A stretch of DNA of 64,000 nucleotides from Candidatus Poribacteria bacterium (GTDB lineage Bacteria > Poribacteria > WGA-4E > WGA-3G). Shown here piece after piece: positions 9,018 to 57,840 of the stretch (position 1 is its first letter; each line of letters starts with the position of its first letter). Made by a program: the position numbers and the translations under genes. The stretch covers positions 520,520-584,519 of the forward strand of contig CBDAUI010000002.1 in the NCBI GenBank assembly GCA_965200205.1, in the 5' to 3' direction. The notes under the pieces are model-generated. The model was given only the letters and a program-made list of their open reading frames with translations. It did no database searches and was not told the DNA's origin.

Positions 9018-9689
9018 TTATTCAAACAAGTTTTCCACGTGACAGGTAAACCCTGGCACAACATCTTCACCTGTTAATGTGGCTTCGCGTGTAAGGGTCT
9101 CAATGTTGTTTTCGGAACGATACACTGTCACCGCTTTGGCGACAGGATCAAGTACCCAGACGAGGCGGGTCCCTGCCTCCAGATAATCCAACGCCTTCCG
9201 GGTAACACGCAAATGGGCATCTGTCGGAGAGACCACTTCAATCGCCAGATCGGGCGGTATCGGGAACGTCTTATCTTCGTCAACATCCAAGTGATCGGTT
9301 AAAACGAAAGCTACATCCGGCTTCATCATGCGGTCGCCAACCTGAAATATCGTTTCTGCGGTGTACAATTCCCCCAACCCGTTTTCGTAGACATGTGAGG
9401 ACAGATGCCATATAACCTTTGCACTGATCTTACCGTGTCTTCTCGTCGCTGGTGACATCGGTATTAATTCTCCTTTCGCGTATTCATATCCGGGGACATC
9501 GTTCTCAAGAAATTCTTCCGGTGTCATCGTCGTCGGAATCGGCAGTTGCCTTTCTGGTGGTGACTTCAGGACTAATTTGCCCTCAATAAATTCATATCCG
9601 GGGACATCGTTCTCAAGAAATTCTTCCAACGTCAGGGGGGGCGGTATTGATTCGGGAATTTCTGGTGCGTCTTTGCGAGGCTCTTTCAT
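9018..9689 (-). CDS. Uma2-family (DUF820) endonuclease with a duplicated N-terminal segment
   Basis: KPDVAF...PDLAIEVVSP and Y..AG...VWVLDP motifs. EEFLENDVPGYE occurs twice. Confidence 0.9.
   Translation of the reverse strand: MKEPRKDAPEIPESIPPPLTLEEFLENDVPGYEFIEGKLVLKSPPERQLPIPTTMTPEEFLENDVPGYEYAKGELIPMSPATRRHGKISAKVIWHLSSHVYENGLGELYTAETIFQVGDRMMKPDVAFVLTDHLDVDEDKTFPIPPDLAIEVVSPTDAHLRVTRKALDYLEAGTRLVWVLDPVAKAVTVYRSENNIETLTREATLTGEDVVPGFTCHVENLFE
9482..9627. repeat. Perfect 38-bp direct repeat (9482-9519 and 9590-9627) within the Uma2 gene
   Basis: attcatatccggggacatcgttctcaagaaattcttcc occurs twice with a 108-bp in-frame period. Confidence 0.95.
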
Positions 9690-39158: not shown

Positions 39159-39227
39159 TTCTTTTTGGTTCCATTTTTGATGCGTAATCACTGCCGTAAG
39201 CATTACTGGTTGTAGAAATCACTTATT

Positions 39228-39312
39228 CAGGACTTACGCAATTTTGACTTCGGTTTCTCGTGCGACAAACTGGAAAGTTTGTGCTACGAAAGAGCAGTAT
39301 GCGTAAGTCCTA
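39228..39312. mobile_element. MITE-like element (copy C)
   Basis: Perfect 12-bp inverted ends aggacttacgca / tgcgtaagtcct, internal hairpin acaaact-ggaa-agtttgt. Confidence 0.65.
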
Positions 39313-42515: not shown

Positions 42516-43817
42516 TTGTCTAAACAGGAACACACGCCAATAAAGTCCACGATAGATCGCCAGCGTGAGAGCAACGATCCGCAAAAACCGATCGGGTATA
42601 TAGCCCTGATTCGTCAGAATTCTAACTTCCGTTGGTTGTGGTGCGGGCAGCTTGTCAGTCTGCTCGGAGACTGGTTTAACCTCATCGCTTCTATGATATT
42701 GATGACGGATTTAACGGACTCAGGACTCGCCATCGGTGTTCTATTTACGATTCGGATGTTCGCGCCGTTTTTTGTTGCACCGCTCGCCGGGATATGTGCG
42801 GACCGTTACAACCGAAAATACCTCTTAATCATTACCGACTTTGTGCGTGTTTTTATCGTCTTCGGATTTCTTTTTGTCCGGGACGAGAGCGATATCTGGT
42901 TGCTCTATACACTCACGACGCTCCTGTTCGCCGTCAGCGGTTTCTTCAGTCCTGCTCGGAGTGCTATTCTACCGGACGTTACCTCTCCCCGCGAACTCGG
43001 GACTGCGAATGCGCTCGGCGCTGCTACTTGGTCGGTAATGCTTGCGCTCGGTGCTGCGATCGGTGGGATAACAACCGGTCTCTTTGGTAGCCAGACGGCT
43101 TTCTTTATTGATGGCTTAACCTTCGCGCTTTCAGCCGTATTTCTGTTTGGGATCAAACTGCCCGGTTCCGCATCTGAAGCGCAGGGGACGACCGCACGCC
43201 CAAAACCGTCAGCATTGCGCTATATGCGTCAGCACCCGGACATCTTCTTCATCGCGATGCATAAAGCAGCGATAGCACTCCTACTCTCATCCGGTTTCCA
43301 AGTCGTGCAAGTAGAGATTGCCAAGAGCCATTTCGTGATTGGTGTTGGCGGTGCGATTAGTTTGGGGTTGATGTATTGTATAAACGGTGTCGGTAGTGGG
43401 ATTGGACCTATTCTGGCGCGACATTGGACTGGTGACCGCGATAAACCGCTCCGTATTAGTATTAGCATCGGCTATCTGATTGGTGCCTTCGGGCTTGTGG
43501 TTACTGCGCCACTATTGGGTTTGGTTGAAGTGCTTATCGGCGGGTTCTTCCGTAGCATCGGCGGCGGAATTGCATGGGTATTTTCGACGCAACTCCTCTT
43601 ACAACGCGCCCCAAACGAGATTCGAGGACGCATCTTCGGGACCGAGTTTGCCTTTTTCACGCTCATGGGCGGTATCGGTACAGCGATTGTCGGTGCACTG
43701 TTAGATCGGTTGCATGTGCGCACAATTCTTTGGGGGATGACAGTCCTACCACTTATTCCAGCGGTACTGTGGTGGTTATGGCAGCGGTATTTTAGCCGCA
43801 TAGAATCACAGAAATAG
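42516..43817 (+). CDS. MFS transporter (DHA3/MefA-like)
   Basis: NFRWLW.GQ.VS.LGDW, G..ADRYNRK, about 12 TM helices. Confidence 0.9.
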   Translation: MSKQEHTPIKSTIDRQRESNDPQKPIGYIALIRQNSNFRWLWCGQLVSLLGDWFNLIASMILMTDLTDSGLAIGVLFTIRMFAPFFVAPLAGICADRYNRKYLLIITDFVRVFIVFGFLFVRDESDIWLLYTLTTLLFAVSGFFSPARSAILPDVTSPRELGTANALGAATWSVMLALGAAIGGITTGLFGSQTAFFIDGLTFALSAVFLFGIKLPGSASEAQGTTARPKPSALRYMRQHPDIFFIAMHKAAIALLLSSGFQVVQVEIAKSHFVIGVGGAISLGLMYCINGVGSGIGPILARHWTGDRDKPLRISISIGYLIGAFGLVVTAPLLGLVEVLIGGFFRSIGGGIAWVFSTQLLLQRAPNEIRGRIFGTEFAFFTLMGGIGTAIVGALLDRLHVRTILWGMTVLPLIPAVLWWLWQRYFSRIESQK

Positions 43818-43856
43818 TCCAGAGATACAGTCGTGTCAAATTTCAAAAATGTGGAT

Positions 43857-44447
43857 TTACTCTTTCCATCGCTGGATGAGTTTTGTATCTATGCCGAACT
43901 GATCAAGGATTTTGGTCACAACGAAGTTTAGCAAATCATCCACATCTTTTGGGAAATGATAGAACCCCGGCATTGCAGGTAACACGCACACCCCGATCTG
44001 TGCTAATTTGAGCATATTTTCGAGATGGATAGGGCTCAGGGGTGTCTCGCGCGGCACGAGTACGAGTTTCCGCCTTTCTTTGATGCATACATCCGCAGCG
44101 CGTTGGATCAGGTTGCGCGACATCCCCGCCGCGATACAAGCGATGCTTCCCATACTACAGGGGACAACGATCATCCCCTCTGTCCGGAAAGAGCCGCTGG
44201 CAATCGGTGCAGCGATGTCCGATTCGTGATGGTAGATAACCCGCGACGAAGAGACACCAATCAGCGACTCCAATTCAAAGTTATTGAGGTCTATCTCAAT
44301 CTGAAGTTCCTCTGACAAGGCGCGCGCACCGGATGCCGAGATCGTCAAATGTACCTCTATATCCTCATGTTTCGTGAGGACCTCAAGCAGGCGGATACCG
44401 TAGACCCCCGCGCTCGCACCTGTTATTCCAACAATCAACCGTTTCAA
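43857..44447 (-). CDS. ubiX: Flavin prenyltransferase
   Basis: GITGAS, ASGS, PCSM, RAADV..KERR, PRETP, P.MPGFY. Confidence 0.93.
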   Translation of the reverse strand: MKRLIVGITGASAGVYGIRLLEVLTKHEDIEVHLTISASGARALSEELQIEIDLNNFELESLIGVSSSRVIYHHESDIAAPIASGSFRTEGMIVVPCSMGSIACIAAGMSRNLIQRAADVCIKERRKLVLVPRETPLSPIHLENMLKLAQIGVCVLPAMPGFYHFPKDVDDLLNFVVTKILDQFGIDTKLIQRWKE

Positions 44448-44671
44448 TGATTACATTCTCCTTTGTGTGAAGTATGCTCGACCCTCAAAAGTGTGCGCGT
44501 TCGTAAAGCATCGCTATTATATCCGGTTACGAGAAAATTTCAAGGAAAAACCGCTATAGTTCTGATCGTTTATCTTCTGTAGGAGCGAACTGTGCTAGTA
44601 ACTCCTATTACTGACGAAAACTAACTCGTCTGAATAGTGTAATAATGTGGCTTCGGTTTTTCATTGTCTGA

Positions 44672-44703
44672 ATGCAGGTCGCGTTTGGGCGAGTACGCCG
44701 CAA
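44672..44703. repeat. 32-bp dispersed micro-element, copy 1
   Basis: atgcaggtcgcgtttgggcgagtacgccgcaa, 28/32 identical to 51729-51760. Confidence 0.8.
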
Positions 44704-45044
44704 ATCGCGGATTATCGCGGATGACACGGATTTCGCGGATTTTTTTGACTTGCCATTCCCCAAACTTATATGCTAAATTAATACCTATGTATTGAAACCC
44801 AATACGGTACTTCTTTAGTCCTGTAGAATTTATTTGCTTGGGTATTTTCCAATATGTTTATAGAAAAGCGTATCTTCACGCTCTTTAGTCCTATAAGGGG
44901 TGTGTGTTTAAAGAAGCGTTATCTTTTCTATCAAAGCTCCGACATGACGATATGTTTGTGTTTTTTGAAATTCGGTTGGTATTTATTCGCTGGAAATGGT
45001 ATTATTACTCTAAAGAAAAACTACATCGTGTAGGAGGAAAAACA

Positions 45045-46238
45045 ATGAGAAGACCACTAAAGATATTCATTACCTATTCACATGCAGATACGAAAGCAAA
45101 GGACAGATTAATAGCGCATTTGGATGTCCTGAAGCAAAATGGCCTGATTGATATTTGGCATGACAACAACCTTAGGCCTGGGGACGCGTGGCGTGATACC
45201 ATTTTCAGTAATCTTGCGGATTCAGATATTCTGCTCTACCTTGTTTCTGCTTCTAGCCTTGGTTCTGAAATGTGCTATATGGAATTAGTCCGGTCATTGG
45301 ACAGAGACACAAGGGTCATCCCGATTATCCTTGAAGATTGCGATTGGCCCAATCACCCACTCAGTGATTTTGAAGTGCTTCCGGATAAAGGCAAGCCTAT
45401 TAGCAAGTGGCAATCTGAGAGTGAAGGGTGGCAAAACGTGATATATGGTATACGGAGAGTTGTTGACATAATGCAGGCTCAGGCTGATCTTTCGTCCGGT
45501 ATACTTCCAGAAAATATACGGGCGGAAAAAATGTTCCAACGCGGACATACTCTGATGATGCTAGGACAATTTAATGAAGCCCTAGAGACATACTCGAATG
45601 CATTTAAACTGAACCCACATCATAATAGTGCCTATGCTAACATCTTTTTGGTGCAGCTTCTCATAAAGAGAGAACGGCATCTTCGGGATATAACTAAACC
45701 TGTTGTCCTAACGGAAGGGTTGTTGGATGAGCAGTACATTCAAACAGCTCTAACTTTATTGGGTGAGGTAAAACTTTTAAACTCCTTGGAGATTAGATCT
45801 GTAGGCCTCAAGGTTAACAAAGGGACTCAGGATGGAGGAAAGGCGGGATTAGATAAAATCCGAAATGTTTACGTAGCAAATTCGTGGCTTTTTCATCAAC
45901 CGATATTGCTTCTTTACGATTGTGATACGAATAAGCAAGAAGAGGACTCTGAGAGGCTTTGGGTGCGTTTGATTCCAGAGAATCGGGGAAATACCAAAGT
46001 AAAAGGCGGAATTGAAAATCTCTTTCCAGAAGAACTTTTTCAGGATTGTTTTTACCATGAAAAGATTAAGGTAAGAAATGACGGTGGAAAAAGCATAGAT
46101 AATGAACTTGATAAGCCAAGATTTTGCCGATGGATTTGTGAAGATCGACGGAATCCCGCCGATTTTGAGGGATTTAAAGAAGTCGTGAAAATTCTTAAAG
46201 AGTTTGTTGAATTCCGTCACTCTCCGACATCCGAATAG
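45045..46238 (+). CDS. TIR domain + TPR + TOPRIM (OLD-like) fusion protein
   Basis: TIR: IFITYSHAD, WHD..L.PG, S.MC..EL, VIPIIL..C.W. TPR: RGHTL..LGQF.EA...Y..A..LNP. TOPRIM: VLTEG..D, YDCD, IENLF. Start ATG 45045 after AGGAGG. Confidence 0.8.
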   Translation: MRRPLKIFITYSHADTKAKDRLIAHLDVLKQNGLIDIWHDNNLRPGDAWRDTIFSNLADSDILLYLVSASSLGSEMCYMELVRSLDRDTRVIPIILEDCDWPNHPLSDFEVLPDKGKPISKWQSESEGWQNVIYGIRRVVDIMQAQADLSSGILPENIRAEKMFQRGHTLMMLGQFNEALETYSNAFKLNPHHNSAYANIFLVQLLIKRERHLRDITKPVVLTEGLLDEQYIQTALTLLGEVKLLNSLEIRSVGLKVNKGTQDGGKAGLDKIRNVYVANSWLFHQPILLLYDCDTNKQEEDSERLWVRLIPENRGNTKVKGGIENLFPEELFQDCFYHEKIKVRNDGGKSIDNELDKPRFCRWICEDRRNPADFEGFKEVVKILKEFVEFRHSPTSE

Positions 46239-46269
46239 GGGCCTGTCTATCTCGCCCAAAGGAAAACGC

Positions 46270-49149
46270 ATGAATCACCAACACACCAACAGCGAAGACA
46301 CTATCACCACCTTATTTGTTGAAATCTTGATGCCGATGAGTGCGACGTGGAATATCCTCGAGCAGACAACAAAACCACTCGTCGAAAATCAAAGAAGACC
46401 CGATGTCATCATCCGCACAGTTGAACGATACCCGATAGCAGTTGAAGTGAAAATCGACTACAAGCGCAGTCCTAATGAAACCGGCGAAGAGCAGGCACGC
46501 GAACGTTACTTGGGCAAAACCCTCCGCACAACGTTGGAAACAATTGCCAGCGCAATAGCGATTCGCCTTCCCCACAGGTTCCGCACGATGCCTCGCGACG
46601 AAATCCGCGAAAATTTAGAGGGATCGAATGATTTCGCATACACACTCCTCAACATTGACGAACCCCAGAGATTCCCGAAAAAAGGCTGGCTTTACGGCAG
46701 CATTTCCGACATCGCAACCGCTATCCGTATCGGAGCAACACCTATTACCACGATTGAGAGGGCTGCCGAGGTGCTTGAACAGGGCATCTCTGATGCTGCC
46801 AATATCGTCAATACTGCGATCCAAGACCGACCCTATATCGGTAAAAGGATCGGCGAACTCCTCGTACAGGAACCTGGTGAGCAGACAACACAGATGGCGA
46901 TGCTGATTATCAGTAACGCTTTGGTGTTTCAGAGTTCCCTCGCGCGTAAGCCAGATTTGGAAGCTGTCCCATCTCTTAGTGAACTCACTGCGGATTATGG
47001 GCAGCTCGATTCAGACGAAGTCCTCAGCGCATGGCGAGAAATCCAAAAGGTTAACTACGCCCCGATTTTCAAGGTTGCCTATAACCTTGTCGAAACGCTT
47101 TCTGCCGATGATAAACTGGTCGGTGAGATCTTAAGCGTGCTACGCGATACCGCACGCGAGTTGGAGAAGATGGGACTTGCACAAGAGCATGAACTCGCCG
47201 GTATTGTGTTTCAGAAACTCATTGACAATCGGAAAATTCTCAAGGCGAACTATACCCGTCCTGAATCCTCAGCGCTGCTCTGTGCCCTCGCGTTACCAGA
47301 ACTCAAAAAGGATCCGAAAAAATTGAAAATCGCAGATTTTGCCTGCGGGACCGGTTCGCTGCTTAACGGTGTTTATCAACGGGTTCTGATGCTTTATGAA
47401 CAAACCGGTGGTAAAGGCGAGACTATCCATCAATATATGATGGAAAAAAATCTCGTCGGATGTGATATTCTGCCGAACGCTGCACACTTGACTGCATCCA
47501 TCATTGCCAGTACCTATCCTGATGTCCGTATCGGCGGCACGCGCATCCACACAATGCCGTATGGTACACAGCGTGCGGATGGTCTTTATGCCATCGGTGC
47601 CCTCAATTTGCTTAGCGACCCGGCAGGGACGCTCCCGCTAATATTAGATACAACAGAAACTACCACAGGACACGGATCTGAAACCACAGACCTTCGGGAC
47701 GCATTCCAACATGGCGAATTTGACATTGTTATTCAAAATCCACCCTATACGCGCACAGGTGATAATAACGCAAATGTACCAAAGAGTATTTTTGGTGACA
47801 AGAAGGCAGCGGCAGCAATGCGAGATTCGCTCAGAGCACAGAAATGCCAACTCATAGGCAATAACACAGGATTGGGGGCACATTTCGTTGACCTTGCCGA
47901 CAGGATGTTGAAGCGAAACGGCAAAATAGCATTTGTGCTACCTGCAACGGCTATCACTGGCAGTAGTTGGTACAAGGTGCGAAAGTTGTGGGCAGAGGAA
48001 TATCGCGATGTGCTTGTGGTCACGATCGCGGATGCAAACATCGAGAAAAGCGCGTTTTCAGCGGATACGGGGATGGCAGAGTGTCTCGTTGTAGCAACAA
48101 AAGGCGTAGGTAATAACACAGGGCAGGGAACGTTCGTCTGTCTGACGCGCTCTCCTGAGGGTGAATTGGAGGCATTGGAAGTCGCAAAGCAGATTCGTGA
48201 GAAACCCAAGGCCATCCGCCATCTTGGAGACAGCCTGTCCGGGGGTGATCCACTCATGATAGGCGATGCGAGTATAGGGCATGTTATCTCTGCACCGCTT
48301 GTCCTGAGCCATGCGGGTTGGGCTGTTTCCCGTGTGAAAGACATGGTTGCCGTTCAAGCTGCATACCATCTCGCGAACGGATACATACGGCTTCCACGTC
48401 AGAGAGACGCTATTGAATTTTCATATTGTCCCGCGTCAGAAATTGGCACCCTCGGGACAGGTCCAAAAGACATATACGGTGGCGGCGGTAGAGGGGCGTT
48501 TGATGTAGAAAAGGGTTGTCTCGACACAGCACAGTATCCTGCCTTATGGCATGTGCATTCGGATTCGCAACGGATGATGCTTGTCGCCCCAGATTCTCAC
48601 GCACGCCCGCGCCCAAATTCGGACGAAAAGGTTCAGCGAATTTTGAAATTGAATAGTCGAACGCATTATAATATGGAATTGCAGTTTAATGCAAATTCGC
48701 TAGCAGTGATGTTCAGGGAAGAAAAGGCACTCGGCATCGCCTTAATCCCTAACGTTTGCTTCACGGACGAAAAATACGAGTATGCGTGGACACTGTGGTG
48801 CAACTCAACTTTTGGCTTGCTTATGCATTGGATGCATAGCGGTACGCAGCAGCAAGGCCGCGGGAAAATGAGTCGTGCTGCCTTTGATGCAATGCCGACT
48901 TTGGATGTCCGCAGGCTCTCCGCTGATGGATTAGTAAATGCGGAACAGATTTTTAACGCGTTGAAGGACAGAGAGCTGCGAGCTTTTCATCAGGTGGATA
49001 CAGATCCGACACGTCATAAGTTGGATCGGTTGTTGTTGTCAGCGGTACTTGGCATTACGGAGGCGGAGCGTCCGGATGTACATGAAGGTCTTGCGTTGCT
49101 TCGGAAGATGCTATCACAAGAGCCGAGTATTCACGGCGGGAAGAAGTAG
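46270..49149 (+). CDS. Type IIG-like restriction-modification enzyme (PD-ExK nuclease + N6-adenine methyltransferase)
   Basis: RPDV...VEVK nuclease motif, YT motif X, DFACGTG motif I, NPPY motif IV, AFVLP. Start ATG 46270 after AAAGGA. Confidence 0.85.
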   Translation: MNHQHTNSEDTITTLFVEILMPMSATWNILEQTTKPLVENQRRPDVIIRTVERYPIAVEVKIDYKRSPNETGEEQARERYLGKTLRTTLETIASAIAIRLPHRFRTMPRDEIRENLEGSNDFAYTLLNIDEPQRFPKKGWLYGSISDIATAIRIGATPITTIERAAEVLEQGISDAANIVNTAIQDRPYIGKRIGELLVQEPGEQTTQMAMLIISNALVFQSSLARKPDLEAVPSLSELTADYGQLDSDEVLSAWREIQKVNYAPIFKVAYNLVETLSADDKLVGEILSVLRDTARELEKMGLAQEHELAGIVFQKLIDNRKILKANYTRPESSALLCALALPELKKDPKKLKIADFACGTGSLLNGVYQRVLMLYEQTGGKGETIHQYMMEKNLVGCDILPNAAHLTASIIASTYPDVRIGGTRIHTMPYGTQRADGLYAIGALNLLSDPAGTLPLILDTTETTTGHGSETTDLRDAFQHGEFDIVIQNPPYTRTGDNNANVPKSIFGDKKAAAAMRDSLRAQKCQLIGNNTGLGAHFVDLADRMLKRNGKIAFVLPATAITGSSWYKVRKLWAEEYRDVLVVTIADANIEKSAFSADTGMAECLVVATKGVGNNTGQGTFVCLTRSPEGELEALEVAKQIREKPKAIRHLGDSLSGGDPLMIGDASIGHVISAPLVLSHAGWAVSRVKDMVAVQAAYHLANGYIRLPRQRDAIEFSYCPASEIGTLGTGPKDIYGGGGRGAFDVEKGCLDTAQYPALWHVHSDSQRMMLVAPDSHARPRPNSDEKVQRILKLNSRTHYNMELQFNANSLAVMFREEKALGIALIPNVCFTDEKYEYAWTLWCNSTFGLLMHWMHSGTQQQGRGKMSRAAFDAMPTLDVRRLSADGLVNAEQIFNALKDRELRAFHQVDTDPTRHKLDRLLLSAVLGITEAERPDVHEGLALLRKMLSQEPSIHGGKK

Positions 49150-49584
49150 AAAGTTAAGTTGGACGCGTAGCATTTGGTGTCTGTCAGAATCAGGGATTTT
49201 CAGATTTTCAGAATTGGACATCTTTCTTGACTGAAAACTGCTTTTGTGAAATTGCCGTAATATTTCTTAACTTTACCTTACTGCCCGAATCACTATCGGA
49301 AACCCGATTTTAACTTATTTCCGTTGACGAGGTTTCCGACCTCGTCTTATTTTCCTTATATTTTATCCTTGCGCAATACCAATCGTAAAGGGTCTTTTTC
49401 GCTTTTTAACTCAGTCGGGATGGCATGTGTAGAAAAGTATTCCTGCCTCTCCGCAAAACCTCAGTGGGGCGGCATGTTCATGAATTTCGCTGATGCGGTT
49501 GACATCTGTCCGCCAAATGCCCTACAATAATGTTAAACGAAATGGATATTATAATTGAAATCATTGATTTGTGAAAGGAAGTCT

Positions 49585-51489
49585 ATGTATCTCGCCGATC
49601 TCTATCTCGAAAACACCGGTCCCATCTCAAAATGCCACGTTGAGATGCCTTTTGCTGACAACAGGGATCCTTTACCTGTCGTGATTGTCGGTCCCAACGG
49701 ATCTGGCAAAAGTATTTTTCTCTCTTACATTATTGATGCCCTGATAGAGTTCGGGAAGCAAGCTTTCAGAGACATTGTGCTTCCAGACAGCTTAGAGGCA
49801 CCATATTTCCGAGTAGTTTACCCAAGCGGAATAAGAAGCGGCGAGCCGTTTAGCTTAAGCCTCCTTCATTTCAGAGTTAATGATGATAACCTATATTACT
49901 GCGAGAAATCTGGGTTACTTGATCCAATGACCTATACTTCTAATTTGAAATCTTTATTTGCTCCTGTATGGAACTGGCCAATAGAGGGGAGCCACAAACA
50001 GGTATTAACTGGTAAAGAGCACGACTTTATAAGGGAGCAGTTTGAAACGGGCGAAATTGACGTGAACGCATCACCTATTGGAAAGATCATACAAACTGAA
50101 TTACAAGAGGGCGCGTACGCCTTTTTTCCTGCGAGCCGACATGAGGATCCTGTCTGGCTTAACCCGAGAATTTTAAAAGTTAATACGGCTGCTTCTGTGA
50201 ATCGCCGGTCTAATACCGATCTTGGTAAACCTCTTCAAGTGGAAACCTGTGCTGATGAAAATATTGGTTGGATATTAGATGTGTTGTTTGATGCATCAGT
50301 TGATTATGATATAATACGGAAACTTCAAGAAGAGGAAGTTCTAAGTGATGAGGAGATAACAAACTGGAACAACTTGCCTCCCCTTCAACAATCTCGACAT
50401 AATATTGAACAGATCTTGCAAGGGGTACTGCAAGATAAACGGGTTAAATTGATACGAAGACTTCGGAATAGTCGAGAACTGAGACTTGCTATACAGTTGA
50501 GTAATGGGCGGGTAATACCTAACTTACAGTCATTATCACAAGGACAATCACAGTTGTTCCACCTATTTACTACAATTATTAGATATGGTGAAGACACTGA
50601 TATCAACAAAAGTATTCGTCTTCGCGATATTACAGGTCTTGTTGTCATAGATGAAATTGATGTTCATCTACATCCGACACTCCAGCATAGTGTCGTTCCA
50701 AAACTCATAAAATTATTTCCCAAGGTCCAATTCATCATATCCTCTCACTCGCCACTGTTTTTACTCGGGATGGAAAAGGAGTTCGGAACAGACGGGCTTG
50801 ACATTCGAAAGTTACCGGATGGAGATAAAATAAATAGTGAAGAGTATCCTGAATTCAGAAGTACTTTTGAATATTACCAAGCAACAGGACGTTTTGAAGA
50901 AGAGATAAAACAACGTTTTGCGAATATGACGAAACCTGTAGTCCTGACAGAAGGCAAGACTGATGCAAAGTACATTCAAACAGCACTGGAACTGCTTGAG
51001 GAGCAAGAACTCTTGAATTCTTTGGAGATTAGACCTGTTGGTGATGAAGAAGACGATGGGGACCGGGGTGGAGGAGAGCCAGGATTGGATAAATTCCGAG
51101 ATTTTTATTCAGTGAAATCCTCCCTTTTTCATCAACCAATATTACTTCTTTATGATTGGGATACAAGAAAGAAACCAGACCAAATTGAGAAGCTTTGGAT
51201 AAGATCAATTCCAAAGAACGCTGACGACACCAAGGACAAGGAGGGAATCGAAAATCTTTTTCCTCAATACCTTTTCAAGACTTGTTTCTATTATGAGAAA
51301 ACTCATAAAGGGATTCACGGCAAATCTAAGGTAATTCCAGAGTTTAAGAAACTAGAATTTTGCAAATGGATTTGTGAAGATCGGAAAGATGCTGACGATT
51401 TTACCAACTTTGGCGTAATTGTAGAAATTCTCAAGGAGTTTGTTAAAACCCGCCAACCGCCTTCAGATCAACAGCCTTCTTCTGAATAG
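49585..51489 (+). CDS. ABC-type ATPase + TOPRIM fusion (OLD/PARIS/Gabija-like)
   Basis: GPNGSGKS, LSQGQ, VIDEIDVHLHP, SSHSP, then VLTEGKTD, YDWD, IENLF. Start ATG 49585 after AAAGGA. Confidence 0.85.
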   Translation: MYLADLYLENTGPISKCHVEMPFADNRDPLPVVIVGPNGSGKSIFLSYIIDALIEFGKQAFRDIVLPDSLEAPYFRVVYPSGIRSGEPFSLSLLHFRVNDDNLYYCEKSGLLDPMTYTSNLKSLFAPVWNWPIEGSHKQVLTGKEHDFIREQFETGEIDVNASPIGKIIQTELQEGAYAFFPASRHEDPVWLNPRILKVNTAASVNRRSNTDLGKPLQVETCADENIGWILDVLFDASVDYDIIRKLQEEEVLSDEEITNWNNLPPLQQSRHNIEQILQGVLQDKRVKLIRRLRNSRELRLAIQLSNGRVIPNLQSLSQGQSQLFHLFTTIIRYGEDTDINKSIRLRDITGLVVIDEIDVHLHPTLQHSVVPKLIKLFPKVQFIISSHSPLFLLGMEKEFGTDGLDIRKLPDGDKINSEEYPEFRSTFEYYQATGRFEEEIKQRFANMTKPVVLTEGKTDAKYIQTALELLEEQELLNSLEIRPVGDEEDDGDRGGGEPGLDKFRDFYSVKSSLFHQPILLLYDWDTRKKPDQIEKLWIRSIPKNADDTKDKEGIENLFPQYLFKTCFYYEKTHKGIHGKSKVIPEFKKLEFCKWICEDRKDADDFTNFGVIVEILKEFVKTRQPPSDQQPSSE

Positions 51490-51586
51490 CAGAACACCTA
51501 TTTTCTCATCGCAACATAAACCAAGAACCAATGCTTCTGTTAAGCGAATACCGGTAATATGTGGTTTTTCTACTATGAGCGAATAA

Positions 51587-51657
51587 GTTTGTAGTAGTGC
51601 GATTCATCGCACGTTCTAAAGGTGGACTAACGGGCAATAAATTGCCCTACTACGAAC
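51587..51657. repeat. GTAG-type double-hairpin (REPIN-like) element
   Basis: gtttgtagtag ... ctactacgaac arms enclose gtgcgat-tc-atcgcac and gggcaat-aa-attgccc. Confidence 0.7.
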
Positions 51658-51716
51658 TAATGGACTTGCAGTGTGAAAACTATGGTAGATTTTAGAATTA
51701 CCTATACACTATTGAT

Positions 51717-51768
51717 GTGCGGTTAGGGATTCAGATCGCATTTGGGCGAGTACACCGCAAAACCGCAC
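51717..51768. repeat. GTGCGGTT/AACCGCAC hairpin with the 32-bp micro-element (copy 2, 51729-51760) in its loop
   Basis: gtgcggtt-aggg-[attcagatcgcatttgggcgagtacaccgcaa]-aaccgcac. Confidence 0.8.
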
Positions 51769-51948
51769 CATAAGTATCAATTTAAGATAAAGGTCTTGGA
51801 GGCGGGTTTTGTCCAACCGATTTAAAGCAGCAAATCGGGGTTGAAAACCCCTCCCACAAGAGACACACTTCCATTATTGATGTGCTTTTTCCATGTTTCC
51901 GTGTAAAATCCGGTGCGGTTGTAAATCGCCCTACCGAGCGTGGGCCTG

Positions 51949-52049
51949 CGGATGTGCATGAGGGACTTGCGTTGCTTCGGAAAATGCTATCCCAAGAATC
52001 GAGTATTCACGGTGGGAAGAAGTCTAAGGTTAAGTTGGATGCGGAATAA
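51949..52049 (+). pseudogene. Remnant of the RM gene 3' end (copy 2)
   Basis: Encodes DVHEGLALLRKMLSQESSIHGGKKSKVKLDAE*, matching 49073-49170. Confidence 0.9.
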
Positions 52050-52208
52050 TTCTGTCGATACGGGATGTTTGGGCACAGCAGATCTATCACAAACTAAAGC
52101 CTTTTGGTCTTTTATCGTGAAAATTTTACTATCCTTTTTATTTCTTACAGAGTCTATATGCATAAGTAACCGATTTGATGTTTACCTTATGCAAAGGAGA
52201 TAAAAAAA

Positions 52209-52829
52209 ATGAATCAGTCAGGCTTGTCTTTAGAAGACAGTATAACCTTAGACAGGTTAGGTCAATACTTAAAAGCATCAGAGGCACTCGCGAAGTCCGC
52301 CTTGTCGAAACAATATTGTAAGGCAGGCAGAGAATGTTTGAACCAAGCCCTAAAAAACGGGTTGAAGAAGGCCATAGATGGGTTAGAATCTGCTGTGGAA
52401 AATGCAGAGGCTTATATTAAGTTAACAGAGGATTACCTAGGTTCAGGTGTAGTAAAAGAATATCTAGACGCGGCCGTACCTCTTATAGACTCAGATGAGT
52501 GGGAGGACAGGAACAAACCCTTTCTTGAATATTGTCTAGACTTTTCAGAAGAAGCACTTGAGGCACGTCTCACCCTACATAGTACACTTAAAAATGGCTT
52601 GGAGATAGAAAAAATTAAGCGATCTATCCATGAAGTAAAAGCTTTTTTAGGGTCCGAGGATGTGAAAAATTTGAAGCAATTTATAGAAAATTATAGTCCC
52701 ACACAACCCAAACTAACGCGCGATGAAATGATCCAGTGGGGCGAACGTCTTTACGAATGGGGAGTTAGGATTGAGGAAATTTGGCAACGACTATCCGAAT
52801 TTATAGACTTATTCTCCGGGTTGCAGTAA
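52209..52829 (+). CDS. Hypothetical all-alpha protein
   Basis: RBS AAGGAG, 206-aa ORF, no recognisable motif. Confidence 0.7.
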   Translation: MNQSGLSLEDSITLDRLGQYLKASEALAKSALSKQYCKAGRECLNQALKNGLKKAIDGLESAVENAEAYIKLTEDYLGSGVVKEYLDAAVPLIDSDEWEDRNKPFLEYCLDFSEEALEARLTLHSTLKNGLEIEKIKRSIHEVKAFLGSEDVKNLKQFIENYSPTQPKLTRDEMIQWGERLYEWGVRIEEIWQRLSEFIDLFSGLQ

Positions 52830-52889
52830 CCTTTTGAGTATAAAAGTGTAGGGGAGTCGAGCTTAAAAAAATCCCCAGGGCTATTTAGT

Positions 52890-53012
52890 TAAGACTTAGG
52901 CAGGTTGCTCTTTTGTACCATAGGCTGTTAGCCTGTGGGCCGAGAACGTCTCTGTTTTTTGAGAGTTTACCCACTAACAGAGCGTCATATCGTCAAAATT
53001 GCGTAAGTCCTG
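52890..53012. mobile_element. MITE-like element (copy D)
   Basis: taagacttaggca ... tgcgtaagtcctg, internal hairpin ataggct-gtt-agcctgt. Confidence 0.5.
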
Positions 53013-53129
53013 ACTTCTGTAGGTGATGCGTAGAACACGAATGTTATCCTTATAGCTATTGATACAACATAACACTTAGAAATAATATTAGGAGCCGTTG
53101 GGTACAGGGTCTGGTGCTTCACTCAAAGG

Positions 53130-53489
53130 TTAAGAATTCGACAGAGACCTCATGCGGATACGGTTTTCGTCAACAACGGAAAAATGGTTCACCCAATCTC
53201 TTTGACTTTCCAGAGCCCGAACTATACTTTGTGCAATTCCTAACGGTGAGTCTGGCGGAAGTCGAAATAGAATTATCCCGAAAGGGGCGTCAAGCCCTAA
53301 CCGGAAAACTAATTCCCCAAAATCAGTGTCAAATGTGATGAGGGTCCGCTTCTGGATTGTAGCAAGAGAAAGTACCTCTCGGTCTCTGATGCCGGGTGCC
53401 ACTTCTCCTACCCAGATAGCGTCGTGTCCGCGAGAACAAATAAATTCCACAACTAAACGCGGGATATTTTCATCTGCTAATAGACGCAT
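53130..53489 (-). CDS. DUF5615-family PIN-like toxin
   Basis: MRLLADEN.P, G.D, D.EVL..A....R.LITFD.DFG. Confidence 0.88.
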   Translation of the reverse strand: MRLLADENIPRLVVEFICSRGHDAIWVGEVAPGIRDREVLSLATIQKRTLITFDTDFGELVFRLGLDAPFGIILFRLPPDSPLGIAQSIVRALESQRDWVNHFSVVDENRIRMRSLSNS

Positions 53490-53745
53490 CGGTTAATTTC
53501 AGTGGATGTTGATAGTCTTTTTGCGTCCGTAATACCGCGCTCGCGTACGCAAGACAGGCGTGAATATCCGCTTGCACGATGTGGGGATAATTCTCAAGAA
53601 TCTCTGCCTCAGTCCAACCGTGTCCGAGTAAACCGACGATGAATTCAACGGCTAATCGTGTGCCTTTTATCACAGGTTTTCCTGTGAGGATATTCTTGTC
53701 ACAGATGATCCGTTCTGCTAATGTTCGAGGGAGCTGACCTTGCAT
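53470..53745 (-). CDS. DUF433-family antitoxin
   Basis: GKPVIKGTRL.V, EIL..YP, DI.ACL.YA. Overlaps the toxin gene. Confidence 0.9.
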   Translation of the reverse strand: MQGQLPRTLAERIICDKNILTGKPVIKGTRLAVEFIVGLLGHGWTEAEILENYPHIVQADIHACLAYASAVLRTQKDYQHPLKLTDASISR

Positions 53746-53824
53746 AATGTTTTCCGCCTTCCGTGCTATCAGTAATAAGTGTTTGCTGCCTCCGCTCCAC
53801 TTCTCCTGCTCAATAGATATTTCT

Positions 53825-53854
53825 ATTCTACTACATTTCCCTTATGACTGTCAA
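53825..53854 (-). promoter_or_regulatory. Putative sigma-70 promoter for the toxin-antitoxin pair
   Basis: Minus strand TTGACA, 18 nt, TAGAAT. Confidence 0.4.
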
Positions 53855-53870
53855 ATAAAAGTGAAGGGTC

Positions 53871-54176
53871 ATGAGTAGGGCCACCTTTAACGCGATGCCT
53901 ACGCTGGATGTTCGTCAACTCTCTACTGAAGCATTAGCAAACGCAGATCAAATTTTCAACACACTGAAATGTGAGGATATGCTACCGTTTAATCAGATGG
54001 ACGCGGATCCGACGCGTCACGAACTGGATCGGCTACTGTTATCTGAGGTCTTGGGTATCACGGAATCGGGGTGTCCGGATGTGCATGAAGGACTTGCGTT
54101 GCTTCGGAAGATGCTATCCCAAGAGCCGAGTATTCACGGTGGGAAGAAGTCAAGGGTTAAGTTGGATGCTTCTTAG
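53871..54176 (+). pseudogene. Remnant of the RM gene 3' end (copy 3, 101 codons, frame intact)
   Basis: 70/93 aa identical by manual alignment to the C-terminus encoded at 48868-49146. Confidence 0.9.
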
Positions 54177-54330
54177 TTTTGTAAAAAATACTGGATTTCT
54201 GGTTATGTCTATGTTATACTAAAAGCGTGAGGTTACCCCGAATAGACAATCCCTTTGTGTTTTCTACTAACCCAGAAAATTTGCTCGGTTTGGAAGATCT
54301 GTAGCACGAATGAAATTGATGTAGGAATTC

Positions 54331-54960
54331 ATGCAATCAATCCATTATAACGACAATGTGTTTATCAATTGTCCATTTGATTCAGTTTACAAACCGTTGT
54401 TTGACGCAATGGTATTCACAATACACGATTGCGGTTTTATCCCGCGTTGTGCGCTTGAAGAAGAAGACGCGAGCCAAGTTCGGATAGATAAAATTTATAG
54501 CATTATTGCAGATTGCCGTTATGGAATTCACGACATATCCAGAACGGAATTAGATGAAGGTTCGGGACTTCCTCGGTTTAATATGCCGCTGGAATTGGGT
54601 GTTTTCCTCGGAGCCAAGAAATTTGGTATAAAGGAACAAGAAAGAAAAAAGTGCCTGATACTGGATACTGAGCCGTATAGGTATCAACAATTTATTTCTG
54701 ATATTGCTGGGCAAGATATTCAGGCACATAACGATAGTTCCAGAGAAGTTATAACACACGTCCGGAATTGGCTGCGTAATGCCTCAAGACGTGAGACAAT
54801 TCCGGGCGGAAGCATCATTTGGAGACGTTACCGGGATTTTAGAAGGGATTTGCCCCAAACAGCGCGAGAGTATCAGTTAACAGTTGAAGACTTGATTTTT
54901 AATGATTATACTTTGATGGTTACGCGATGGTTGGGAACTAAGGCAAACCACTTATCGTAA
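54331..54960 (+). CDS. Hypothetical protein, probable TIR-like / nucleoside 2-deoxyribosyltransferase-like fold
   Basis: VFINCPFD, KI...I..C.YGIHDISR, PRFNMPLELG (resembles the N...ELG motif), SDIAG.D. Confidence 0.6.
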   Translation: MQSIHYNDNVFINCPFDSVYKPLFDAMVFTIHDCGFIPRCALEEEDASQVRIDKIYSIIADCRYGIHDISRTELDEGSGLPRFNMPLELGVFLGAKKFGIKEQERKKCLILDTEPYRYQQFISDIAGQDIQAHNDSSREVITHVRNWLRNASRRETIPGGSIIWRRYRDFRRDLPQTAREYQLTVEDLIFNDYTLMVTRWLGTKANHLS

Positions 54961-54983
54961 CATGTTTGACGGAGGGACTTAAA

Positions 54984-56771
54984 ATGGCAAGGGAAAGAAT
55001 TATCAAAGATACGCCGAAACGAGGAAAACTCACCAAAAGCCAAGTTAAACGCGCAGTAGAAAAGGTTGTACTCGGTAAGCCTAGTGATGGAGAGACAAAT
55101 TCTTCTGCACAATACTACAAAACACTATTGCGGTTAGGGGTCCCTGGTGTGGAACTTCAAAATCCGGATATGTTAAAAGCATTTGTTGAAACTGGCTTAC
55201 TACCCCCTGATGTACCATTGGACAATTATTCCCTAGAGCTCCGACTTTGGGTGCCCTGGCCAGCAGACAGAAAGGATTTTTCGCTTTATAAGATTAACCC
55301 AGAAACTGGGCGGGCCTATGCTGGTGCCTCAGACCTCATGATGGAGGCACGCCACACTGACAGTCACTTCCATCCTCAACTCCCTGACAGCGTTTGGGAA
55401 AACGCCCCGCGCGTTCACTGGAAGACGTTCTCCGAAGATGTTGAGGATCTTATCAAAATTATTATCCGGACGCAACACCTGCGACAACGTGCCTTGCCAC
55501 TCCTGCCCATGGGAGATTCCCGTTGGATTAGTTACTTCAACGAATTTTCAGAATACTTTGAATTTCAAAAACAAAAATTCACGACGCTAGATCCCCAGCG
55601 TGTCCTTATAGTCTGTATTGGAGGTTTTTCTTCACCTACAGAGGAACTTATGCGATGTTTGCACAAGAATCTTGATCGGAATTCAAATATCACTGAGATA
55701 ACAATGGTTATTGAGGATTGTGTTGATTTTGAAGAGGCGGAACTTGGAGAATTGATTGCCAACTCTCTTACCCCTATCAAGCTAGATGTTAACATCGCTT
55801 CTTTGGATGTGATTGCGGAAATACTTGAGCATCACCGCGCTCGCGGCAAAAGTTTATCTCTAATATTGCCGAAAAAGAATAAAGTTGATATGTTGAAGAA
55901 TTTTCGCAGCACCTATATTGACTATCTCGCCCACTTAAAAAATGGTGATCGTGAATTGCGGGCAGATGTACTTGGTACCATTCAGCGGGACTGTGACGCT
56001 CGCATTGAAAGATGGGATCGGTTTCTTCACATTGGCGTTGCGTTCTCCTTTTCCGAATCTGATTTGGAGAGGTTCATTAACATTGATAGAAACCTGCTTG
56101 ATGCTATAGATGTTGATGAAAGTATAGAGGAAGCCGTATCTAATGCAATCAAGGTTTTGGAAGAAATGCTCGGTTGGGAAAGCCATCAAAAACGCTCCAG
56201 TCAAGAAGGAAACCCTTCTCAAAATCCCGCAGTGAAAACAATCCTTCGATCATTAGATTTGAAAGAAGTTGCCGATCAATTCATGAGGGAGTATGAGTCT
56301 TTTGATAATTCGGATGAGGCGAGGCAATTTCAAATGTCGGTGCAGTCCCTTGAGGATGCACTAAATGCGCAAAAAAGCAGTCAGCAGATTAGAATTTTAT
56401 CTAAGCGGTGTCGCGTTAGTTTTCAGGATTTCGTGGATGCCGAAAAATGGAAAAAACCTCTGAAAATTCTTGAAGCGTTTTTGCAATTAGATGGCGCAGA
56501 GGAATTCATTCAAAAATGTGGTGTCCCCAAAGTGGATGGAAGCATAAACTCCCTCCAACTCGAAATAGAGGAATTCAAAACCTTAGTTGAGCTCCTTGAG
56601 GAATATAGCGAACTTAAATCGGCCGGTTTAGAAGCGAACAGACAACAAATCAAACAATGGGAAACCAAATTCAAATCGTATGTATTGGAGTTACTTGCTG
56701 ATCCTCAATCTCAGAAAATCATTCAATTTCTTACAGAGGAATTTCTTGAGCATATTAAGAATGCATTTTGA
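54984..56771 (+). CDS. Large hypothetical protein with a helical C-terminal half
   Basis: 595-aa ORF, ATG 54984 after GGAGG, no recognisable family. Confidence 0.7.
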   Translation: MARERIIKDTPKRGKLTKSQVKRAVEKVVLGKPSDGETNSSAQYYKTLLRLGVPGVELQNPDMLKAFVETGLLPPDVPLDNYSLELRLWVPWPADRKDFSLYKINPETGRAYAGASDLMMEARHTDSHFHPQLPDSVWENAPRVHWKTFSEDVEDLIKIIIRTQHLRQRALPLLPMGDSRWISYFNEFSEYFEFQKQKFTTLDPQRVLIVCIGGFSSPTEELMRCLHKNLDRNSNITEITMVIEDCVDFEEAELGELIANSLTPIKLDVNIASLDVIAEILEHHRARGKSLSLILPKKNKVDMLKNFRSTYIDYLAHLKNGDRELRADVLGTIQRDCDARIERWDRFLHIGVAFSFSESDLERFINIDRNLLDAIDVDESIEEAVSNAIKVLEEMLGWESHQKRSSQEGNPSQNPAVKTILRSLDLKEVADQFMREYESFDNSDEARQFQMSVQSLEDALNAQKSSQQIRILSKRCRVSFQDFVDAEKWKKPLKILEAFLQLDGAEEFIQKCGVPKVDGSINSLQLEIEEFKTLVELLEEYSELKSAGLEANRQQIKQWETKFKSYVLELLADPQSQKIIQFLTEEFLEHIKNAF

Positions 56772-56796
56772 GGAACTTCTGATTACGAGGAAACTG

Positions 56797-57840
56797 ATGA
56801 ATATTGATGCCTTAGACACACCAACGCTCGTCGCGGATCTCGATGTACTTGAACGGAATATCGACGGCATGGCAACGCACTGCCATCAACTCGGTATCCC
56901 GCTGCGCGTCCATACCAAAACGCATAAAGTACCAGAAATCGCGAAACTGCAAATCGCTGCCGGTTCGCGAGGTATTACCTGCCAGAAGTTAGGCGAAGCA
57001 GAAGTGATGGTAGATGCCGGAATCGACGACATCCTGATTCCGTATAATATCGTCGGGAAACCGAAACTGAAACGGTTGACTGCCCTCGTCCAACGCGCCC
57101 GCATTACCGTCGCACTCGATTCAGAAGAGACCGCAACTGGCATCTCTCAACAAGCGATTGCTGATGGCTGTGTTGCGCCTGTTATCGTGGAACTCGATAC
57201 CGGAAGTGGACGCTGTGGCGTGCAATCACCGCGAGCAGCACAACGCCTTGCACAACAGATTATGAAAATGCAAGGCATCGACTTCCAAGGTATCATGACG
57301 TATCCGAGCAACGTGCGCGCGAAGCCGTTTATCGAAGAGACGCTTGACCGTCTTTCAAGCGACGGGATTCCTGTGAACATCATCAGTGGTGGCGGCACCG
57401 GTTCGGAAGCAGCATCAAAAGAGATCGGCTGCACAGAAACCCGAAGCGGTTCTTATGCCTATGAGGGCATAACTCGTATCGGCGGCTCGGAGATGCTAAC
57501 ACCTGAACGGTGTGTCTTGCGAGTTATCGTAACTGTTGTCAGCACGCCAACGCCTGACCGGATTATCATTGATGGCGGTCAAAAGACGTTTGCCAGCTAC
57601 CCGCCAACGCCTTATGGACATATCGTTGAACACCCGGACGCTAAGATTTATGGCATGTCCGTTGAACATGGACACGTCAATGTCAGTGAATGTTCACACC
57701 AATTTAAGGTGGGTGAGCAGCTCTCGGTTATCCCGCTACATCAAGGAATGACGAGCAATCTTCACGACATACTGGTAGGCGTTCGCGGCGATAAAGTCGA
57801 GGTGATTTGGGAAATCGCAGGTAGAGGGAAAGTCTTTTAA
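56797..57840 (+). CDS. D-threonine aldolase / DSD1-family PLP enzyme (alanine racemase fold)
   Basis: LDTP, RVHTKTHK, QKLGEAE, G..RCG, SGGGT, D.G.K, EHG. Confidence 0.9.
   Translation: MNIDALDTPTLVADLDVLERNIDGMATHCHQLGIPLRVHTKTHKVPEIAKLQIAAGSRGITCQKLGEAEVMVDAGIDDILIPYNIVGKPKLKRLTALVQRARITVALDSEETATGISQQAIADGCVAPVIVELDTGSGRCGVQSPRAAQRLAQQIMKMQGIDFQGIMTYPSNVRAKPFIEETLDRLSSDGIPVNIISGGGTGSEAASKEIGCTETRSGSYAYEGITRIGGSEMLTPERCVLRVIVTVVSTPTPDRIIIDGGQKTFASYPPTPYGHIVEHPDAKIYGMSVEHGHVNVSECSHQFKVGEQLSVIPLHQGMTSNLHDILVGVRGDKVEVIWEIAGRGKVF

Follow-up and report, generated by a model that had tools for sequence, protein, structure and literature searches.

The 64,000-nucleotide (nt) stretch of Candidatus Poribacteria DNA analysed here (contig CBDAUI010000002.1, forward-strand positions 520,520 to 584,519; hereafter the window) contains a full-length gene for a putative nuclease-methylase resembling Type IIG restriction enzymes (46270–49149, + strand). 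The 3′ end of this gene, referred to here as the tail, recurs twice further downstream, at 51949–52049 and 53871–54176, in direct orientation. These relics are an old, recombination-made record of defence-gene turnover, and not a new kind of mobile element or a new mobility mechanism. Our preferred account, put forward with moderate confidence, is that divergent variants of the locus were stacked without the help of an integrase, the older methylase bodies being lost and their 5′-truncated tails left in place.

The repeated tails and their operon units

The sequence-only reading had reported three copies of the tail in direct orientation, and all three were recovered by tblastn, by blastn and by a repeat search of the window, which agrees with blastn on the tail repeats (repeat family D1). 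With the full gene product as query, tblastn returns residues 889–988 at 53871–54170 (+; 75% amino acid (aa) identity, E = 8e-41) and residues 952–988 at 51933–52043 (+; 84% aa, E = 9e-12). In blastn, copies 1 and 3 (48868–49166 and 53871–54169) are 76.0% identical over 300 nt, copies 2 and 3 (51949–52042 and 54076–54169) 93.6% over 94 nt, and copies 1 and 2 (49073–49167 and 51949–52043) 87.4% over 95 nt, the longest exact matches among the three pairs being 26, 17 and 25 nt.

Copy 1 (48868–49170, +) is the end of the intact gene together with 21 nt beyond a premature TAG. Copy 2 (51949–52049, +) comprises the final ~33 codons and the stop, with the frame open; its homology to the gene begins sharply at about 51946–51949, and immediately upstream lies a small hairpin repeat with no gene sequence. 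Copy 3 (53871–54176, +) is a 101-codon open frame that starts at an ATG. The in-frame TAG of the resident gene (49150–49152) stands where copies 2 and 3 and the homologues have a Ser codon followed by seven more, the C-terminal end after the Ser reading K/R-V-K-L-D-A-x in copies 2 and 3. Because homology continues to 49170 and the homologues are mostly 964–970 aa long, the resident gene is eight codons short; 49170, previously given as the end of the full gene, thus holds as the limit of homology but not as the end of the open reading frame (ORF), which stops at 49149. The only full-length methylase in the window is without the basic C-terminal end (SKVKLDAx).

The copies are old. Over 101 codons, copies 1 and 3 show 34 synonymous and 26 non-synonymous differences, corresponding to 1.46 synonymous (dS) and 0.19 non-synonymous (dN) substitutions per site, with the synonymous sites saturated. 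Their translations share 70 of 93 residues and are identical over the last 25 aligned, exactly the figures given earlier from the sequence. The comparison set comprises 56 related loci, designated by L numbers, from species-representative genomes (53 titled Poribacteria and three ‘uncultured bacterium’), or 57 sequences including the window. Since the distance among the window copies is about that from each of them to the tails of other species, the copies derive from different lineages. The tree built from 57 tails puts window tail 1 beside the second tail of L002 (support 0.87), in a clade that includes L001 (0.94); tail 3 is placed away from them, with weak support. The earlier view of the copies as alleles from other strains, and not a fresh duplication, is borne out by a dS of ~1.5 and by the placement of tails 1 and 3 in different clades.

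Read against the other loci, the region resolves into units that are versions of one operon. Unit 1 (44771–49355) would comprise a leader, a TIR-TPR-TOPRIM gene and the intact methylase; unit 2 a second leader, an ATPase-TOPRIM gene, small repeats in the place of the methylase, tail 2, an orphan gene and a toxin-antitoxin pair; and unit 3 would be tail 3 with the spacer and the genes p209 and p601 that normally stand behind the methylase.

Preceding the first gene of unit 1 is an operon-upstream (leader or promoter) region (44771–44956, +) that matches the DNA directly upstream of the first locus gene in L013, L016, L005, L025, L022, L001, L017, L027 and L018. Its counterpart in unit 2 (49375–49554, +) matches the DNA before the ATPase-TOPRIM gene in L013, L014 and L048 and before the methylase in L016, L017, L018 and L025. 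In all three of the other loci with a relative of the ATPase-TOPRIM gene (L013, L014 and L048; 64–74% aa identity), that gene lies directly upstream of the methylase. A second operon unit therefore begins behind tail 1, and the ATPase-TOPRIM gene is not cargo captured behind tail 1, as had been proposed. Setting units 1 and 2 apart are a terminator-like hairpin with a T run (49326–49355, +, the hairpin itself at 49326–49346; 9-bp stem, a pattern match in a consensus scan) and a promoter-like site (49499–49528, +; TTGACA-18-TACAAT, 11/12 in a consensus scan).

At the other end of the island, 53128–56281 is collinear with L002 over 3170 nt at 86% identity, through the toxin-antitoxin pair, tail 3, the spacer, p209 and p601. 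The same join of toxin-antitoxin pair, tail and p209 is thus present in a second species, whose genome was assembled independently. Inside this block, the toxin-antitoxin genes are 90–98% and p209 and p601 ~90% identical, and the tail fragment 35–87% per 60 nt with a differing 5′ end; dS between window and L002 is 0.97 for the tail against 0.21–0.48 for its neighbours. Directly after the methylase stop in 14 loci is the spacer that here follows tail 3 (54177–54330, +; 92% identical to L013 12911–13056 and 88% to L015). Next to it is p209 (54331–54960, +), a conserved partner gene found directly behind the methylase in 12 loci, of which L052 has an internally deleted methylase and the other 11 a full-length one, and then p601 (54966–56771, +), encoding a large protein with 77–87% aa identity in L002, L015, L036 and L048. 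Since spacer, p209 and p601 are collinear with the stretch behind full-length genes elsewhere, tail 3 is best read as the stump of a former full-length gene. It had been taken for the anchor of a captured cassette; what follows it is the normal arrangement behind the gene, and a remnant of a full-length gene is the finding that the sequence-only reading itself had named as counting against its proposal.

The mosaic gene and its locus across Poribacteria

The intact gene has a probable start at ATG 46270, within an ORF that opens with TTG at 46204, and encodes 959 aa. Its product matches Pfam Eco57I (1.3e-9) and N6_Mtase (4.4e-5), and the methylase motifs DFACGTG and N490-P-P-Y493 (NPPY, motif IV) are invariant in 38 of 38 homologues. 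Also invariant in 38 sequences is an N-terminal P44-D45...E59-x-K61, which fits a PD-(D/E)xK site; no nuclease family is matched in Pfam, PADLOC or NCBIfam. Judging from these motifs, we describe the protein as Type IIG-like, the N-terminal motif marking its putative nuclease part. The full-length structural model has a mean predicted local distance difference test score (pLDDT) of 51, too poor for a fold search, with the N-terminal part below 50. Among 363 relatives, the best 120 are 67–92% identical. Among solved structures, PglX/BrxX come closest in sequence (E = 4e-8 over residues 331–409); all matches to PglX, MAD2 and Type IIG models (NCBIfam, PADLOC) are far under the family cut-offs, the NCBIfam model BREX_1_MTaseX scoring 33.2 bits against a cut-off of 500, and no further BREX protein occurs among the island ORFs.

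The body of the gene and its helical tail of ~100 aa are conserved, and the recognition domain between them is hypervariable. Identity to the window across loci is 84–92% over the first 410 residues in most (51–60% in a paralogous clade), 30–65% in the middle and 71–84% in the tail. These parts have different histories. Data from residues 660–988 reject the tree of residues 23–640 (log-likelihood (lnL) difference 1470; approximately unbiased (AU) test, p = 1e-6), the tail data reject the tree of the N-terminal body (AU p = 8.6e-4) and that of the recognition domain (AU p = 4.3e-4), and the recognition-domain data reject both the body tree and the tail tree in the AU test. The tests were run on FastTree trees, and each data set's own best tree is favoured by design, yet the lnL differences, at 127–1470, are large. 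Pairwise identity of the flanking housekeeping genes tracks the body (r 0.13–0.74) and does not track the recognition domain (r −0.04 to 0.18) or the tail (r 0 to 0.2), and identity of p209 is not positively related to that of the adjacent tail (r −0.31; 9 loci, 36 pairs). The significantly different trees of body, recognition domain and tail make the gene a recombination mosaic, and the rejected topologies, together with the failure of flanks and p209 to track the tail, place recombination breakpoints on both sides of the tail. In 584 of the 799 pairs compared, homology between loci breaks off between positions −10 and +12 relative to the stop codon.

Besides recombining internally, the gene is often broken elsewhere: it is split into separate ORFs in L007 and L008, has a 3′ deletion in L014, an insertion sequence (IS) in L042 and an internal deletion in L052, and is truncated at the 5′ end in L055.

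The methylase commonly occupies a fixed site with variable surroundings. Downstream, 31 of the 56 loci have the same Gfo/Idh/MocA gene, then a cation-efflux gene and others; upstream, 23 share an SDR gene that stands behind CoaE and a molybdate-type ABC transporter; both flanks are present in 17. The gap from methylase to Gfo gene ranges from 106 to 5653 bp, with anything from no ORF to eight, and the upstream gap to the SDR gene from −6 to 3852 bp. Downstream cargo includes p209, AbiJ-like proteins, PIN/DUF433 pairs, helix-turn-helix antidote pairs and IS elements, and upstream cargo AAA_35, HEAT and TPR proteins and the two TOPRIM fusions. The region behind the gene is thus a cargo hotspot in the relatives, as had been predicted, with shared flanks and varied cargo for the family.

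The number of tails is almost always one. A single tail is found in 51 of the 57 sequences and none in three (contig ends in two of these, a deletion in the third); two tails occur in each of L002 and L036, and three in the window. As cargo varies among the 51 single-tail sequences, duplication of the tail is not the usual route of cargo turnover, contrary to what the array had suggested.

Tandem repetition of another kind was observed behind some methylases. In L041 (13047–21368), thirteen tandem paralogues of a ~200–230-aa protein lacking a Pfam match directly follow a divergent-clade methylase; L044 (12871–15626) has four such paralogues before the contig end; and in L045 (13095–16865) a pair of genes, one for 85 aa (−) and one for ~340 aa (+), is repeated three times in tandem. 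The ~340-aa protein of L045 is reminiscent of Rpn/YhgA-type nucleases but has no such Pfam match at E ≤ 0.01.

Origin of the tail copies

The order of events and the mechanism of joining, which we infer from these arrangements, would be as follows. Whole versions of the locus, each laid out as an upstream region, an optional TOPRIM-type gene, the methylase, p209/p601 or other cargo and a toxin-antitoxin pair, would have been stacked head to tail by recombination independent of an integrase. Joins could have formed through one homologous crossover in conserved sequence with a non-homologous join on the other side, or through later deletion. The older versions would then have lost their methylase bodies and kept only the 3′ stumps, so that the tails would be scars of allele turnover and not attachment sites.

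Several observations weigh against stacking of this kind. No trace of the methylase body is detected by tblastn in the 459 bp between the ATPase-TOPRIM gene and tail 2, and, relative to L002, tail 2 and the orphan gene look like a separate 1.2-kb insert between a repetitive extragenic palindrome (REP)-like hairpin and the toxin-antitoxin pair; loss of the methylase from unit 2 is for these reasons presumed and not seen. The repeat in L036 extends exactly from a conserved ATG to the stop (282 nt, 93% identical) and brackets p209–p601, which resembles a homology-bounded insertion. Three of the four extra copies start at most 14 codons from the start of the tail module (window copy 3 at codon 1, L036 at codon 9 and L002 at codon 14; the fourth, window copy 2, at about codon 69), and two begin at an ATG; random deletion end points would not cluster in this way. 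All four keep an open frame, with dN/dS of 0.05–0.13 against full-length tails, the full-length tails having 0.085 among themselves. Finally, the window island is flanked by ubiX and a D-serine-dehydratase-like gene, a setting that does not occur in the 56 loci and that stacking does not account for.

Much of this evidence also bears on the best placed of the alternatives, which is that tails serve as sites of capture: circular DNA carrying a tail and cargo would recombine homologously with the resident tail, pushing the old tail and its cargo downstream, and the DNA between tails could be looped out. Favouring it are the breakpoints on both sides of the tail, the confinement of the extra copies to the limits of the conserved module, the discrete insert formed by tail 2 and the orphan gene, and L036, in which p209–p601 stands between two tails that are sisters in the tree (support 0.99; 93% nt identity). 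The near relative L011 (flanks 93–95% identical to those of L036) is without the insert. No integrase would be required, none being present, and a model of homologous recombination with circular intermediates has been published for rhs genes (PMC2935791). According to the same article, the repeated rhs cores are near-identical to the upstream gene (91.6% aa or identical), whereas dS here exceeds 1.

The window copies, moreover, are only 76–94% identical, their longest exact matches being 17–26 nt, and RecA-type exchange usually requires runs of about this length or longer. Cargo varies with a single tail in the great majority of sequences, the stretch behind tail 1 is the head of an operon unit and no cassette, and p209 does not follow its adjacent tail in identity. 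We therefore judge capture at the tail unlikely as the source of the array. The earlier proposal that the tail is a recombination anchor for serial capture stands to the extent that breakpoints bound the tail; it fails on the operon head behind tail 1 and on the single-tail loci. Given shared exact runs of at most 26, 17 and 25 nt, loop-out should be rare, and its suggested occurrence between the window tails is unlikely.

In a wider form of the same idea, the tail would be a portable homology arm: segments of tail and cargo would circulate among Poribacteria, insert at resident tails without an integrase and displace the earlier tail and cargo in the manner of rhs, and displaced tail ORFs that start at an ATG may yield small proteins serving p209 and p601. 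We regard this form as quite doubtful.

Whether or not tails were captured, copy 3 and the L036 copy might be working small genes under selection, for example for an adaptor or regulator of p209/p601, an explanation compatible with either recombination model. Both run from an ATG to the native stop in open frames, dN/dS between the two L036 copies is 0.087, and in the window and in L002 the fragment lies directly before p209–p601. The tail is also predicted to fold independently, as a helical bundle with a pLDDT of 79.5 when modelled alone and 71–91 within the otherwise poor full-length model; none of the 114 PDB matches listed in a fold search with the tail model reaches E ≤ 0.001. In public data, 98 clusters of ORFs of 55–177 aa match the tail, 17 of them exactly 93 aa long from a conserved Met. 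An N-terminal control gives 30 clusters, an uneven comparison in that the tail query also catches the paralogous clade.

Other observations count against such a function. The 93-aa ORFs form no clade but are interspersed with full-length tails, their nearest full-length tails being as close or closer (up to 100%); tail-bearing fragments of every length occur among the 150 matches examined out of 663 in a profile search; and on some contigs several tail and N-terminal gene fragments lie together, which suggests pieces of broken genes. Between window and L002, the fragment is 35–87% identical per 60 nt with a different 5′ end, as against 88–98% for the flanking genes, and the L002 fragment has no ATG at its start. 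In L036 the fragment sits behind p601 and not before p209. A function of the tails as small genes is thus improbable.

The array might also be an artefact in which metagenome assembly fused strain variants of one locus at the conserved tail. The sequence does look metagenome-derived, and the units are allele-like variants of one locus. However, with exact matches of only 17–26 nt between copies, an assembler working with long k-mers would not be misled, the DNA linking units 1 and 2 (49171–49374) is unique and not a repeat, the junction of toxin-antitoxin pair, tail 3 and p209 recurs in L002, and L036 has two tails as well. We consider such an artefact highly improbable.

Genomic islands that integrate in gene 3′ ends are known from tRNA and tmRNA genes and, with phage 21 and e14, from icd. 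Entry of islands carrying a replacement 3′ end into the methylase end, through a tyrosine or serine recombinase since lost or acting in trans, would leave direct 3′-end repeats that differ synonymously, as seen here, but we give it almost no credence, since the copies start at differing codons (1, 9, 14 and ~69) with no short identical core at a fixed position, no segment of raised synonymous conservation marks a core site, the DNA between tails consists of parts of one operon type and not of self-contained elements, and recombinases are missing from the window, the other loci showing only IS transposases and a TnpB-like gene. The absence of an integrase noted earlier is confirmed: no integrase, recombinase or transposase domain is found in 48 window ORFs of at least 100 aa outside the island (Pfam, E ≤ 1e-5) or in 12 ORFs in or beside it (Pfam, E ≤ 0.01). 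The window has no tRNA or tmRNA, and no Rfam family reaches its gathering score in 43500–57500.

Two further candidates were rejected. A conserved DNA site within the tail, such as an att core or an embedded promoter, is not indicated, as synonymous-codon identity there (0.42–0.67 in 10-codon windows) is not raised over the gene-wide value of 0.56 ± 0.08. An integron-type cassette array is not indicated either: there is no IntI and no Rfam family at 43500–57500, and the repeats are coding gene ends and not attC-like hairpins.

Neighbouring genes and known systems

Directly upstream of the methylase is the TIR-TPR-TOPRIM gene (45042–46238, +), whose ORF opens with GTG at 44904 and has its likely start at ATG 45042. 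Its product matches Pfam TIR_2 (1.6e-14) and TPR and, in PADLOC, a ThsB-like TIR (1.9e-31) and a retron-type Toprim (1.2e-7); in the one other locus with this gene type, L023, it is again directly upstream of the methylase. The ABC-type ATPase-TOPRIM gene (49555–51489, +) matches Pfam AAA_21 (2.2e-18) and AAA_15 and PADLOC PtuA-like proteins (3.5e-27). The TOPRIM-like C-terminal parts of the two genes (45688–46219 and 50924–51455) are 68% identical at the nt level (blastn) and their N-terminal parts unrelated, so that the gene upstream of the methylase also combines a variable head with a conserved end.

Behind tail 2 is an orphan gene for a 206-aa helical protein (52209–52829, +); none of the 56 loci has a relative, Pfam, PADLOC, NCBIfam and PHROGs give no match, and the Atlas gives no usable one. 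The toxin-antitoxin-like pair (53130–53745, −) consists of a PIN-like DUF5615 gene (53130–53489; Pfam 6.8e-25) and a DUF433 gene (53470–53745; Pfam 1.7e-22), whose products are 94% and 93% identical in aa to those of the L002 pair. Its upstream region (53746–53870, −) is conserved beside DUF433 in 10 loci and contains a promoter-like site (53854–53825, −; TTGACA-18-TAGAAT, 11/12); a consensus promoter scan found no + strand site within or just behind tails 2 and 3.

The products of p209 and p601 have no significant family match in Pfam, PADLOC, NCBIfam or PHROGs. The p209 protein, with a mean column identity of 83% (13 sequences), belongs in the Atlas to an unnamed widespread family with a weak TIR lead (score 0.85); its earlier description as TIR-like has only that lead in its favour. 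The N-terminal part of p601 matches in 13 further loci by itself. Its first ~50 aa (window 54966–55120) also begin small c20 ORFs of 87–114 aa that lie behind p209 in 13 loci, often before an AbiJ-like gene, so that p601 and the c20 ORFs present another conserved start with a variable remainder.

The island (44448–56785) has a G+C content of 0.40–0.45 (0.47–0.51 in the methylase), and the flanking housekeeping DNA 0.47–0.52. Far from it, among housekeeping genes, is a gene for a putative restriction endonuclease of the Uma2 family (9018–9689; Pfam 5e-35).

Small repeats occupy the island's intergenic DNA. At its left edge is copy 1 of a dispersed repeat (44672–44704, +), 88% identical to 51729–51761; its 24-nt core occurs twice in the window against zero expected, and relatives lie in intergenic DNA of L001, L022, L028, L030, L034, L036 and L050. 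A cluster at the expected position of the unit 2 methylase body (51490–51948, +) contains a hairpin (51560–51680; fold z-score −4.26 against shuffles), a repeat (51717–51769) and a REP-like hairpin (51889–51948). These three kinds of repeat, the second including 44672–44704, are shared with other Poribacteria loci, and one of them is a GGTTCGGTT...AACCGAACC-type hairpin of which L002 has two copies and L013 one. A perfect 22-nt inverted match links the spacer beside the toxin-antitoxin pair (52992–53013) to intergenic DNA 14 kb upstream (39227–39248).

If stacking of locus variants is the right account, a restriction-type gene would have marked a defence hotspot over a long time throughout a candidate phylum of sponge symbionts, and its stumps would record the succession of locus versions, by which the turnover of defence genes in uncultured bacteria could be dated and put in order. 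The genes p209 and p601, the two TOPRIM fusions and the orphan gene are flagged here as candidate defence genes.

A literature search of limited coverage found, among the papers listed, no description of this Poribacteria locus, which shares features with several known systems. Like BREX PglX and Type IIG/IIL enzymes, the methylase appears to combine in one polypeptide an N6-adenine methylase core (NPPY) and an N-terminal PD...ExK motif; unlike PglX, it scores far under the cut-off and is accompanied by no other BREX genes, its partners being TOPRIM proteins, p209 and p601. With genomic islands at gene 3′ ends, the locus shares direct repeats of a gene 3′ end and synonymous differences in the replacement copy, but it has no integrase, common crossover point or conserved core, and the intervening DNA is of the same locus type.

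Exchange of recognition domains in Type I S and Type IIG genes, according to Furuta et al. (2011, PMC3077401), likewise involves a variable domain bracketed by conserved sequence and with a decoupled history. The movement described there is between two repeat-flanked positions within one gene, whereas here there is a single variable domain, and the 3′ bracket is left behind as separate stumps. The core defence hotspots of Johnson et al. (2023, PMC10250203) resemble the Poribacteria locus in that a fixed site between conserved genes houses defence-type genes in changing combinations, with mobility genes mostly not apparent. Here, by contrast, the methylase itself is the conserved resident and cargo varies on both sides of it, the variation is across species of a phylum and not among isolates of one species, and the window copy is outside the conserved site.

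Closest in layout are the rhs arrays, for which Jackson et al. (2009, PMC2935791) propose that C-terminal displacement results from recombination with laterally acquired DNA through circular intermediates. As in the arrays described there, direct, 5′-truncated copies of the 3′ part stand behind an intact gene, each followed by different genes (also in L002 and L036), the downstream DNA is low in G+C and there is no integrase. The rhs repeat differs little from the upstream gene, and its ORF continues into a variable toxic tip. The Poribacteria repeat, unlike it, is the very end of the ORF and its copies are 76–94% identical, with a dS of 1.46, L036 (93%) coming nearest to rhs; the variable recognition domain is encoded ahead of the repeat and is missing from the fragments, and one apparent cargo is the head of another operon unit. 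With these differences, the pattern of displaced 3′ ends known from rhs and toxin loci would, if the stacking account holds, be extended to a restriction-modification gene.

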